Source: Amoebidium appalachense (Eukaryota; Protista; Ichthyosporea). From it: DNA of 64,000 bases. The stretch's first letter is position 1, and each line of letters opens with the position of its first letter. The notes beneath the pieces are model-generated. The model had not been told where the DNA came from, did no database searches, and saw only the letters and a list, made by a program, of their open reading frames with translations. The stretch covers positions 14,742,418 to 14,806,417 of the forward strand of contig CAVNZM010000001.1 in the NCBI GenBank assembly GCA_963693365.1, read 5' to 3'. Both the position numbers and the translations under genes were made by a program. Positions 56,082 through 63,986 of this stretch are shown here, in pieces.

Positions 56082-59000
56082 ATGTCTACCGTGACTAAGT
56101 TCATGCGGTCGCTCTGGGGCAAAGATGATGCCGACCAGGTAGTCTTTCATTCTTGGTCCCCTGCTCTTTACTTATCCTGTTCTGTTGCTCCATGTCCTCT
56201 AACTCTGTGCTCTAGGAGTGTTCCTTCCTTCCTTACTTGCACTTCAACACTCCTTTTTGGCATGTACGACCCTTAGCCTTGAACGGCTCCTCTTTTCCCT
56301 GCGTTCCTATGTGCTTTTTGCGTGCCCGTGCGTGTATGCTCTGTATGTGTGTCTGTGTATGTGTGTATTTGAACACACGTGTATCTCTCTCTCTCCCCCC
56401 CCCCCTCTCTCCCTCTCTCTCTCTCTCTCTGTGTGTGTGTGTGTTTGTGTGTGTGTGTCTCTCTCCTCTCTCTCTCTTCTCTGTATGTGTGCGCGTGTGT
56501 GTGTATGTGTGCATGGGTGCGTGCGTGGCACAAGCACGCGTGTACGTGCATGCGTCGTTTATTATCGTAATACACCCAAGGTCGCCAGTGTAGATACATC
56601 TTTCAATTATAGACAGCGAGAGATAATGTCTGTTTAGAAAGCCATCATCCAAATCTGAAACACCCCAATATTGGTTTGTTATTTCCTCACACTAATTGAT
56701 TGCCTGCACAGAAACACCCAGCATCAGCCACGCCGTCTCCGTCGGACCGCCAACCAACCACAAACGCTGTAGCCCACATAAAAACGGTGGGTGGACCCCC
56801 CCCCCCCCCCCCCCCCCCCCCCCACACACACACACACACACACACACACACACACACGAAAATAAAGGGGGGGGGGGGGGAGGGGGGGGGAGAAAGCACC
56901 GTCCGAGTTTCTATATGACTTTTTTTTTTGTTTCCTGTTTACCGCTGCAATCTGGAACCTCGGCATCTTTCAAGACCTTTGCTTTTTTATTGCTGTCTGC
57001 GAATATATGAAACCCTACACGTTTAACCCCTCCCCCAACCACCCAACCACCACCACACCAATGTCCTTCCCGGGCACGCTGTGTCGGGGGGGGACTCTCA
57101 GCCCTCCTATGCAACGAAAGGTTATTGTGTTTTTGCTTGGGCCCGATGGGAGAGAGAAGGGCAAAATGGAGGGTTGGGTGGGATGGGATTTGGGCGGCCG
57201 GGGCGTGTGTGGGGGGCGGGTGGCTTTTGTTGGTTTTTTTTTTTTTGGGGGGGGGGGGGGGGGGGGGGGGGGGGGGGGGGGGGGAATAGAAAGGAGTGTG
57301 GGGGTGGTGAGGGTGTGTGTGTTGGATGGAGGGAAGGGGGGAGGGGGTGGGGGTGGAGGGGGGAGGGAGGCAGGTGTCAACAGGGATTACATGTTCTCCA
57401 CTCTGTCTTCATTTTTTCTATTGGTCCCCCCCTCCCCGCCCCCCCCCCCCCCCCCCCCCCCCCCCCCCCACCACCACCATCCCTTGACTCTCATTCCAAG
57501 CAACTCTGGCTTGCACGTTTGTTTGGTTTCTGATATGTGCTTTTGTTTCTCGCCTGATTTGTGATTCCCCTATTCCATGTTACGCTCTTCGATGCATCCT
57601 CCCCCCCCCCCCCCCCCCCCCCTCCCCTCCCCTCCCTTCTTCCGCCCTTGTAAATGTGAGCTTTTAAAAATTCTTTAACACACTCTAATACTAACCCTTG
57701 CCCCTCTCTCTCTCTCCCCCCCCCCCCCCCCCCCCCCCACCCCACCCCACCCCAACCCCGGCCCTCCTCCTCCCCTTACTTTTTCTTCAGGATGAGCAAC
57801 GTGAGACCATCCTTCAGGTGTTGTATGAAAATGCGGCGTTTGCCGAAATCAGCAACCAGCAGAGAAACGAACTGGTGGATCATTTTGTGCTGACGGAAAT
57901 AGCGCCGGGAGAGGTGCTGTTCAAGCAAGGTGGGTGGGATGGGTGGGTTACGGGGTTGGGGGAATGGTTGGGGGGGGGGGGGGGGGGGGGGAGGGGAGGG
58001 AGGGGGGAGGGTGGGGGGAAGGAAGCGGGGGGGGGGGGGGGGGGGGGGGGGGGGGGGCTGGGTGTGGGTGGGTAGGTGGGTTGGGGCTGTGTGTGTGTGT
58101 GCGTGTGCATGGTGTGCGTGCGTGCGTGTGGTGTGTGTGTGTGCGTGTGTGTGTGTGTGTGTGTGTGTGTGTGTGTGTGTGTGTGTGTGTGTGTAAATCT
58201 TTGTGGGTTGCGTGCGTGCGTGCGTGCGTGCGTGCGGGCGTGCGTGCGGGCGGGTGTGTGTGTGTGTGCGTCCGTGCGTTCGTGTCGGCCCTTCCTGTGT
58301 GTTTATATGTGGACTTATTATCATGATGGCAGGATGTATGGTTGAGGGGCTCATCATTTATAATTGTGATAGACAGATACATGGACGAGGAGGGTAGAGT
58401 AGTGTAGTGTGAAAGACGTTGATGCTAGTGCGAGCATAAACTGCTCAATGGCTAGTATGGTGTGTGCGTCACATGTACACAGCGCCTCAACATAACGCCA
58501 TGCGTAACTCTTTCCCCTTTTCTTCCCTCACCCTCCCCCCCTCCCCCCCCCCCCCCCCCCCCCCTTTTTTTTTTCCCCCTTTTTTTTCCCCTTTTTTTCC
58601 CTCTTTCTTTTTCTTTGTTTTCTTTATATCTTTTTTTTTCCCCTTTTATCTGAGACAGGTGACTATGGGCGCTACTTCTACATAGTTGAAGATGGGCAGT
58701 GTGAGGTGTACGTTCAGAAACTTGACCACCCGCCAAAACGGGTTGCCACGGTGCACGTTGGGGCCACGTTTGGAGAGTTGGCCCTTATGTATCCAGGCCC
58801 ACGCCGCGCTACCGTTAAGGCTACTAAACCAACGGTATGTGCTGTGTGTTATCCATACTTATTATTCTTCCTTTTCCTTTTTTTTTTTTTTTTTTTTTTT
58901 TTTTTTTTTTTTTGTGTGTGTGTGTGTGTGTGTGTGTGTGTGTGTGTGTGTGTGTGTGTGTGTGTGTGTGTGTGTGTGTGTGGTGGTGGTGGGGGGGGGG

Positions 59001-62000: not shown

Positions 62001-63986
62001 TCGACTATTTTTGTACTATCCCCCCCCCCCCCCCCCCCCCCCCCCCCCCCCCCCCCCCACACACACACACACACACACCTCCTCCTCCCATCCCTACTTC
62101 CGGGTCCCCCTCCCTCTTCTTTCTCCCCCAACTACACTGCCTACCCCCCTCCCCCCCCCCCCCCCCCCCCCCCTCTCCCCCCTCCCCCCTTCGCCCATCC
62201 CTCCCCATAGCCCCTCATCTGGGCGCACACATTTGCTTGTGTGTGTACTCCCCCCCCCCCCCCCCCCCCCCCCCGCGCATGTATGTGTGTGTGCCCCCCC
62301 CCCCCCCCCCCCCCCCCCCCCCCAACCAACCAAAAAAAAAAAAAAAGACATAGATGGCAACAAAGTCTAATTTTTGCGTGCCCGACCCCGACCCGGCACA
62401 GATAAAGATGGTGGTTGATGGGACCTGACCACATGTACGCGCATTTGGAAGCGCCCGCCAACTTGTATGATTTTTTACATATCCACACACACACACACAT
62501 ACACACACACACACACACACACACACACACACACACACACACACACACACACACACACACACACACACACACACACACACACACACACACACACACACAC
62601 ACACACACACACACACACACACACACACACACACACACACACACACACACACACACCTACCCCTTTCCTGCCTCCTCTTTACCCGCTCGTGCACGCACGC
62701 ATGCGCATGCACATGCGCATTGCATGCGCATACACATGCACGCACACACGGACAGTTACACACACACACGCGCGTGCGCGCGCGCACACACACACACACA
62801 TGCACGCACGTACGCACACACGCAACCACGCACGGAGAGAGACACGCACGTACCGACACACATACACGCACACACATGCACACGCACGCGCACACGCACA
62901 CGCACACACACACATACGCGCACACACACACATACGCACACACTTACGCAGCCACGTACAGAGAAACACACAGACTCACAGACTCACACATACACACACA
63001 CATACACATACACACACACACATACATACACACACACACACACATACACACTCGTACGCGAGCCTTGTGCCCGCATACCTAACTAGAGTCTATGGTATGT
63101 GCATTGCTGACAAAACAGTATCTTACAGGCGATGTTGTGACTCGGTTTTTTGGCCCACCCGGACACGAGAGGTCTTTGTCATTTCCGGTCTTCGCCGAGT
63201 TTTTCATCATGTTCCAGGTACACCCACTGTGCACATGGCTGATGTTGCATACTTGAATGTTTGCCTTTGCATGTGTCCTGCACCATGCTTCTCGTCGTGT
63301 GTGCGTACTTCGTACCGTGTTCAGCATTCAAACCCCCCCCCCCCCCCTCCCCCCCTCCCCCTCGCCCTCTTCCCACCTCTTCGCCTTCCCTTCACCCATG
63401 AGGAAAAGAACCAAAAGAAGGGAAAAGAGTTTTGGGGGGGGGGGGGGGGGGGGGGGGGGGGGCTTCTTTTGCTTCCTCCCCTCGACGGCGTAGGAAGGGG
63501 GGGGGGGATGATGGGGAGATGATAGTCATCTACAGACCAATGAATACCAAACACACACCAAACATGCAATGGAGTTGGAAGCATGCCTTTTTTCTCGTCT
63601 CAAGCTCTGCTTGCCTTTGTCCTCCTTTTTTTTTGTTTTTTTTTGTTTTTTGTTTTTGTTTTCCTCCCCCCCCCCCCCAAAAGCCCTTACACCATTCATC
63701 ATTTGCGCTCTCACATAAGAGATGTGAAAAGGGTGTGTGTGCGCGCATATGTGTGGGCGTTTGTAAGTGGGTGGGTGGGTGGGTGGGTGGGTGGGTGTGT
63801 AGCAATTTCACTGACTCTCTACCCGCTACCGCAGATCGAGCATGCGCAACAGCTGTTTCTTCTTCACGATCCCGAACGTACGGGCCAAATCAGTGAAAAT
63901 GACTTTATGAGCGTGGTACCCAGGATGGGTGACGTCAGAGCCCCACTGTATGCACGGCAATTTTTGGACATATGCCGCCAGCCGGG
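56082..63986 (+). CDS. cNMP-binding domain fused to aralar/citrin-like EF-hand domain; probable Ca2+-binding mitochondrial aspartate/glutamate carrier (SLC25A12/13-like), 5' part, continues beyond the window
   Basis: Exons 56082-56138, 56712-56786, 57791-57929, 58659-58834, 59566-59769, 60831-60961, 61927-62012, 63129-63217 and 63835-63986, all in phase. CNB motifs: [51 protein letters not shown]. Aralar-like motifs: [84 protein letters not shown]. Confidence 0.9.
59797..60292. repeat. Intronic tandem duplication of ~240-260 bp
   Basis: 59797-60037 and 60034-60292 are nearly identical apart from G-run lengths. Confidence 0.85.
63261..63335 (+). repeat. Short dispersed intronic repeat, longest copy
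   Basis: ttgcctttgcatgtgtcctgcaccatgcttctcgtcgtgtgtgcgtacttcgtaccgtgttcagcattcaaaccc spans both partial copies at 91 and 59376. Confidence 0.8.

Follow-up and report, generated by a model that had tools for sequence, protein, structure and literature searches.

A cyclic-nucleotide-binding domain joined to the EF-hands of a likely aspartate/glutamate carrier in Amoebidium appalachense

In the ichthyosporean Amoebidium appalachense we found a gene in which a cyclic-nucleotide-binding (CNB) domain, similar to that of the regulatory subunit of PKA (PKA-R), runs directly into an EF-hand domain like that of mitochondrial carriers of the aralar/citrin type. The gene lies on the + strand of a 64,000-nucleotide stretch (the window) of contig CAVNZM010000001.1, positions 14,742,418 to 14,806,417 of assembly GCA_963693365.1. 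The CNB-EF fusion is a single real gene, and its relatives make it likely that a carrier of the aspartate/glutamate type follows downstream of the window. We predict that cAMP or cGMP would directly control transport by this CNB-EF-carrier protein, without a kinase, and we consider the chances of this to be about even. The role of Ca2+ is probably secondary.

The nine coding exons run from the ATG at 56082 to 63986 and hold 369 codons without a stop. A GT donor was found at all nine exons and AG at all eight internal acceptors, and the reading frame is still open at 63986, where the gene extends past the window end. Among the 24 sequencing runs listed, run X1 contained 0.36 of the sampled words; X1 and a further run, X2, were treated as RNA because spliced joints are present in them. 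A 3218-nucleotide contig from X1 contains exon 5 (59566..59769) in full at its positions 890-1094, and its loose ends flanking this exon are the end of exon 4 (58659..58834) and the start of exon 6 (60831..60961). The same contig spans exon 1 (56066..56138, residues 1-19) at its positions 427-500, with loose ends leading to exon 2 (56712..56786, a linker, residues 20-44) and to an upstream exon ending at 54519. The summed lengths of exons 2-4 equal the distance between exons 1 and 5 on the contig, which accommodates exon 3 (57791..57929, residues 45-90). The joints on the 3' side of exon 6 rest on splice signals, reading frame and homology. This part comprises exon 7 (61927..62012, residues 261-289), in which the EF domain continues, exon 8 (63129..63217, residues 290-319), which belongs to the aralar-type EF domain, and exon 9 (63835..63986, residues 320-369), which holds a further EF-hand.

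An in-frame stop lies within the 30 RNA-confirmed bases 5' of the ATG. Because this stop is directly upstream in the RNA, 56082 is the start codon, and an additional upstream coding exon is ruled out. An in-frame stop is contained in the 5' untranslated exon (54093..54519, + strand), whose 3' end comes from the RNA contig and whose start value holds only if the exon is unspliced. An out-of-frame ATG at 54510 opens a 12-codon upstream open reading frame which overlaps the main start codon across the first intron, and five further upstream ATGs are present if the 5' exon is unspliced. The upstream frame could limit translation of the fused gene.

Exon 3 encodes the N-terminal helices and first strands of the CNB, and exon 4 encodes its barrel. 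Exon 4 alone scored 39.7 bits against Pfam cNMP_binding (PF00027, cut-off 27.5), and its best matches among PDB sequences were PKG and PKA-R. The 16-residue phosphate-binding cassette is encoded at 58769-58816, with the conserved Arg139 at 58802-58804. Exon 5 holds the junction itself, that is, the last CNB strand and the hinge (to ~59598), a short linker and, from 59620, the entering helix of EF-hand 1. A preliminary description made from the DNA alone had placed the junction inside this exon and argued that it is not a gene-merging artefact, which the RNA contig bears out, as it covers exon 5 and connects this exon with exon 4 on one side and exon 6 on the other. The same description spoke of a complete CNB-A domain running into an aralar-like EF-hand domain. 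The direct joining holds, but the domain is not complete. It has N-terminal helices, barrel, cassette and hinge, while the helix that opens EF-hand 1 sits where its own C-helix would be.

Compared with CNB-A of PKA-R and the first CNB of PKG, the window protein shares the fold and the phosphate-binding cassette but has a single CNB, no dimerisation/docking domain, CNB-B or kinase, and EF-hand 1 in the place of the C-helix. No second CNB was found in the window protein, and a kinase-inhibitor motif of the RRxS/A type is absent from residues 1-60. An identity as PKA regulatory subunit or PKG was rejected on these two grounds, with the start of the protein fixed by the upstream stop.

Exons 6 and 9 gave sub-threshold matches to Pfam EF-hand, and exons 3, 5, 7 and 8 gave no Pfam match. 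Against PDB sequences, the sole match of exon 5 alone was aralar1, and it was weak (E 1.6). Exon 6, which encodes EF-hand 2 (12-residue loop at 60843-60878) and the start of EF-hand 3, matched aralar1 (E 8e-4), citrin (E 9e-4) and then MICU1 (E 2e-3). Of the aralar-type domain, the window includes no more than the first ~200 residues. The EF domain is in the same register as in aralar/citrin (SLC25A12/13; AGC1/AGC2) and in fungal Agc1-type carriers.

The closest relative that we found is protein P0004 of Ichthyophonus hoferi (EukProt), which matches residues 45-363 of the window protein with 52% identity over 325 columns (E 7e-115). By exon, the values are 39% for exon 3, 36% for exon 7 (where the alignment is unstable) and 62% for each of exons 8 and 9. 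The identities amount to 65/116 in the CNB and 97/190 in the EF region, and because the conservation of the CNB equals that of the EF domain, the CNB is not decaying. P0004 scores 67 bits for cNMP_binding and 128 bits for Mito_carr, the latter in two stretches, and also contains EF-hands.

The preliminary description had suggested that the architecture might exist in other protists, and it does occur in public protein sets under automatic annotation, with members labelled as SLC25A12/13. When exon 6 was used in an exhaustive HMMER search, 24 matches were obtained, two of them with cNMP_binding (P0004 and P0012), and P0026, an 878-residue cluster mate of P0012, has cNMP, EF-hands and three Mito_carr stretches. 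In a profile search, 7 of 40 matches had cNMP, EF-hands and Mito_carr, including proteins of the amoebae Protostelium nocturnum, Phalansterium solitarium and Cavostelium apophysatum. A scan of JGI metagenomes yielded 80 loci, of which two had the fused layout (L001, which is new, and L002, which is like P0046); the remaining loci matched nothing but the CNB part and were used as outgroups. The seven profile matches, P0026 and L001 make up nine full-length fused relatives with the complete layout. P0012, P0048, P0081 and the L002 open reading frame, being duplicates or near-duplicates, were excluded from the counts and the trees, which gave 11 non-redundant fused proteins. In the ESM Atlas the first match (score 0.96) was a cluster of 59 members and 839 residues, annotated with Mito_carr in 100%, cNMP in 75% and EF-hand in 69%. 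According to the cluster annotation, diatoms are the commonest phylum among the six members with a record. CNB-bearing aspartate/glutamate carriers are present in no fewer than two named lineages of eukaryotes, and probably in diatoms as well.

All nine full-length fused proteins keep the three Px[DE]xx[KR] motifs and contact points I-III (E-K, R-D and R), which are those defined for the citrin substrate (PMC11539162). The three repeats and the contacts are shared between aralar/citrin and the fused relatives; the fused proteins differ by an added N-terminal CNB at EF-hand 1. For the window gene, 1666 nucleotides of the X1 contig remain beyond exon 9 (at most 555 codons). Counted from residue 360 of the window protein, 565 codons would fit on the contig, whereas the full-length fused relatives need 458-481 residues. 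Since the transcript has room and the relatives carry one, it is likely that a carrier lies downstream, as had been proposed before.

Three observations concern the wider set of proteins. P0026 and P0043-P0047 have a leader of ~50-100 residues before the CNB, partly basic and with a stretch of hydrophobic residues, which resembles a cleavable sorting signal; this leader of the amoebal-type fused carriers is absent from the window protein and P0004. P0010 of Luapelamoeba hula has aralar-like EF-hands and a carrier, without a CNB and without the contact point III motif of the other full-length carriers, and judging from this sequence its substrate is possibly different. P0031 is a eukaryotic-looking aralar-type carrier deposited at NCBI under an 'archaeon' metagenome-assembled genome, probably a contamination of that bin.

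These relatives also bear on whether the fusion could have arisen through an error of annotation or assembly, or whether the gene encodes a MICU-like EF-hand protein that lacks a carrier. Exon 6 alone does score MICU1 near aralar, and single-exon word-index searches gave no fused relative. Exon 5 gave no match among seven candidates, and exon 4 gave one match, a PKA-R-like protein with two CNBs; as fused relatives exist, both results reflect the limited sensitivity of these searches. An ESM Atlas search with exon 5 likewise returned only generic or EF-hand leads, with scores of at most 0.91. Against an artefact stands the junction within one exon, joined by RNA to both neighbours. P0004, which matches over 325 columns, has a carrier, and the structural models described below match aralar/citrin before MICU. 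We therefore regard this explanation as already largely refuted and give it hardly any chance. Identity as MICU1, MICU2 or MICU3 was rejected by way of the relatives, as in the one that matches along the entire window protein the sequence goes on into Mito_carr.

Structure prediction, which the preliminary description had named as a check, was applied to two relatives. The AlphaFold2 model of P0026 was built with 14 sequences and had a mean pLDDT of 74.5 and a pTM of 0.44. It contains the CNB barrel, a strand, a hinge helix (214-224), a break of one residue and the EF helix (226-235). Its CNB superposes on that of PKA RI-alpha (3plq) at 1.1 A. Foldseek matched the model first to the aralar/citrin N-terminal domains (4p5w/4p5x), and then to the ADP/ATP carrier, MICU and PKA/PKG CNBs. 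For P0004 the model quality was low (pTM 0.38, mean pLDDT 50.8 and, in the carrier part, below 50), with junction and matches as in P0026.

The way in which the domains are joined suggests how a ligand might act. In the proposed mechanism, the CNB of the fused protein would bind cAMP or cGMP through its conserved cassette. Because the B-helix (hinge) is attached to EF-hand 1, ligand binding would be expected to shift the mobile EF unit, and this shift would in turn change mitochondrial aspartate/glutamate exchange. [quoted passage not shown] PMC4250520 places the aralar/citrin N-terminal domain in the intermembrane space, with EF-hands 4-8 as a static dimer and EF-hands 1-3 as a mobile unit for which vestibule opening was proposed. 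For PKA-R, PMC10279917 describes that cAMP bends the B/C helix and so moves the output of CNB-A. In the fused proteins the spacing from hinge to EF-hand 1 is nearly fixed: 9 of the 11 have 14 residues, one has 13, and the window protein has 12. A precedent for an N-terminal sensor that truly regulates SLC25 transport is given by the ATP-Mg/Pi carriers SLC25A23-25 (PMC11539162). They differ in having a Ca2+ sensor with two EF pairs, an inhibitory helix, a nucleotide substrate and no CNB.

Several points weigh against direct control of transport by a cyclic nucleotide. The RNA support comes from one sample, since run X2 agrees with X1 but was made from the same material. The low pTM values of both models (0.38 and 0.44) mean that the geometry between the domains is not resolved. 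The others concern the ligand, the carrier step and the ichthyosporean copy, and are given below together with the alternative explanations.

As for the ligand, Ala after the cassette Arg indicates cAMP in CNB domains and Ser or Thr indicates cGMP. The residue at this position is Ser in nine fused proteins and Arg in the window protein and Ichthyophonus. Arg matches neither the Ala nor the Ser/Thr rule and so points to no ligand preference for the window protein. In addition, there is no CNB-B to provide a capping aromatic residue and we recognised no substitute. The CNB fold might be kept while the domain senses a nucleoside or a non-cyclic nucleotide, or nothing at all, serving as a structural cap. 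CNBs can switch ligand, and PMC10959531 describes a trypanosome PKA-R in which a Glu-for-Ala/lost-Arg change produced a nucleoside binder. The cassette of the nine non-ichthyosporean proteins also deviates from the PKA-R pattern by having no Pro before the Arg. On the other side, the cassette pattern G-[ED]-x8-R, and with it the cyclic-phosphate site with its Gly, its Glu or Asp and its Arg, is kept in 11/11 fused CNBs, together with a small residue at the Ala202-equivalent position. The change of the trypanosome type was found in none of the 11, and the window cassette is close to those of the PKA-R-like P0001 and P0038. Taken together, we find another ligand, or none, unlikely.

The carrier step has to be weighed against the findings on citrin. 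Purified citrin is not regulated by Ca2+, its carrier domain is active alone, and mutations in the human protein's N-terminal domain mainly block import (PMC11539162). Because the citrin N-domain neither regulates transport nor is needed for it, this step of our proposal is without a working precedent among these carriers. Binding of a cyclic nucleotide could instead control import of the carrier, dimer formation, stability or partner binding, rather than the rate. Such a role would agree with citrin, where N-domain mutants are mostly mislocalised, as well as with the conservation of the pocket in the fused proteins, and the long leader with its hydrophobic part in several fused relatives suggests special import needs. 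However, the tight, length-conserved link to the mobile EF1-2 unit suits a lever, and human citrin has no CNB, hence its insensitivity need not extend to the fused proteins. We give the import or stability role a modest chance.

The preliminary description had also proposed that the protein integrates cyclic nucleotide and Ca2+ signals, and this part found no backing. The single Ca2+ site of citrin is EF-hand 2, which the authors of the citrin study consider a possible remnant (PMC11539162). In the window protein the EF-hand 2 loop has D, D and S at positions 1, 3 and 5, and Asp instead of Glu at position 12. The loop is canonical in 7 of the 11 fused proteins and degenerate in three (Ichthyophonus and two others), so that, in contrast to aralar/citrin, it is not uniformly kept. 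The insensitivity of purified citrin to Ca2+ points in the same direction.

The last point against our proposal is that the P0004 gene model ends after two of the three carrier repeats and is altered around contact point I. Together with the altered helix-2 context, this could mean that the ichthyosporean copy is a diverged paralogue with another substrate, or a truncated protein that does not transport. The trees give this some weight. The window protein and P0004 are sisters (100/100), and the branch leading to them is long (1.64). In the tree of EF and carrier parts (21 rows), nine unfused carriers (animal, fungal and one unnamed) group at 96/96 to the exclusion of this pair. Forcing the pair together with animals (p-AU 0.016) or with animals and fungi (p-AU 0.020) was rejected by the approximately unbiased (AU) test. 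Nevertheless, in P0004 the two signature motifs are intact and so are contact points I and II, it ends at the start of the third repeat as a cut gene model would, and the window transcript has room for a full carrier. A diverged or truncated copy seems to us quite unlikely.

The separate domain trees, which had been put forward as a further check, were made for the CNB and for the EF and carrier parts. In an 83-row CNB tree, all 11 fused CNBs fell, in two places, inside a group (SH-aLRT 96) of mostly first-position PKA-R/PKG-type domains. For this tree the non-fused CNBs were thinned at 70% identity, which kept 83 of 240 domains. The EF and carrier part of the window protein lies outside the group of sampled animal and fungal AGC carriers. 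The CNB-bearing proteins did not form one group in any free tree (two changes), and 26% and 32% of bootstrap trees gave one change. A single group of all 11 fused proteins was not rejected for EF and carrier (p-AU 0.42), nor was a single group of the fused CNBs (p-AU 0.63), where the likelihood was above that of the free quick search. All trees are unrooted, small and thinly sampled, with long branches, and the AU tests were run after the trees had been seen.

On this sequence evidence, the history could be that of an old paralogue lost in a patchy manner, of an ancestral fused form, or of a transfer into ichthyosporeans. The two AU results and the near-fixed length of the junction are compatible with an ancestral fused form. 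In its furthest version, the CNB form would be the ancestral eukaryotic aspartate/glutamate carrier, directly gated by cyclic nucleotides, and ichthyosporeans, amoebae and diatoms would have retained it; the CNB would have been lost in animals and fungi, and the puzzling EF domain of human aralar/citrin, which does not regulate, would be the leftover transmission of the sensor. We regard this version as speculative and rather improbable. By annotation, the ESM Atlas also holds clusters that combine cNMP and Mito_carr in green algae (123 members) and, with Peptidase_C92, in oomycetes (66 members). They resemble the window protein in having a CNB fused to an SLC25 carrier, and such fusions may have arisen more than once.

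The rest of the window holds features of other kinds. A tripeptidyl-peptidase II gene with many exons lies at ~27000-52830 on the - strand, divergent from the fused gene, with weak Pfam matches to Peptidase_S8, TPPII_GBD and TPPII_Ig-like-1. Exons of a universal stress protein were found at 2970-3224 (- strand; Usp, 35.2 bits). A frame-shifted retroelement-like region at ~10700-13700 (- strand) has a weak RVT_1 match (E 1e-4) and bears a resemblance to DIRS-type elements. A near-identical tandem duplication with a period of ~1380-1395 nucleotides occupies ~19885-22615 and is either a recent repeat or an assembly duplication.

In the literature that we searched, which lacked most subscription papers, we found no SLC25 carrier described as directly controlled by cAMP or cGMP, and no description of the combination of CNB, EF-hands and carrier. 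Two amoebozoan genome papers survey cNMP-binding proteins (PMC5804921 and PMC4758236). In their accessible portions, the word 'carrier' is absent from the main text of both and from the supplement text of PMC5804921. Figure S14 of the latter is described there as showing the domain layouts of 27 cNMP-binding proteins, and the supplementary figures of either paper might show such a protein. The CNB-bearing branch of aspartate/glutamate carriers is apparently undescribed. A sensor placed on the mobile unit would offer a direct test of a question that Tavoulari et al. state as open, namely whether the N-terminal domain can regulate the carrier. If binding changes transport, several protist lineages would have a kinase-free path by which a second messenger acts on redox and amino-acid exchange in mitochondria.

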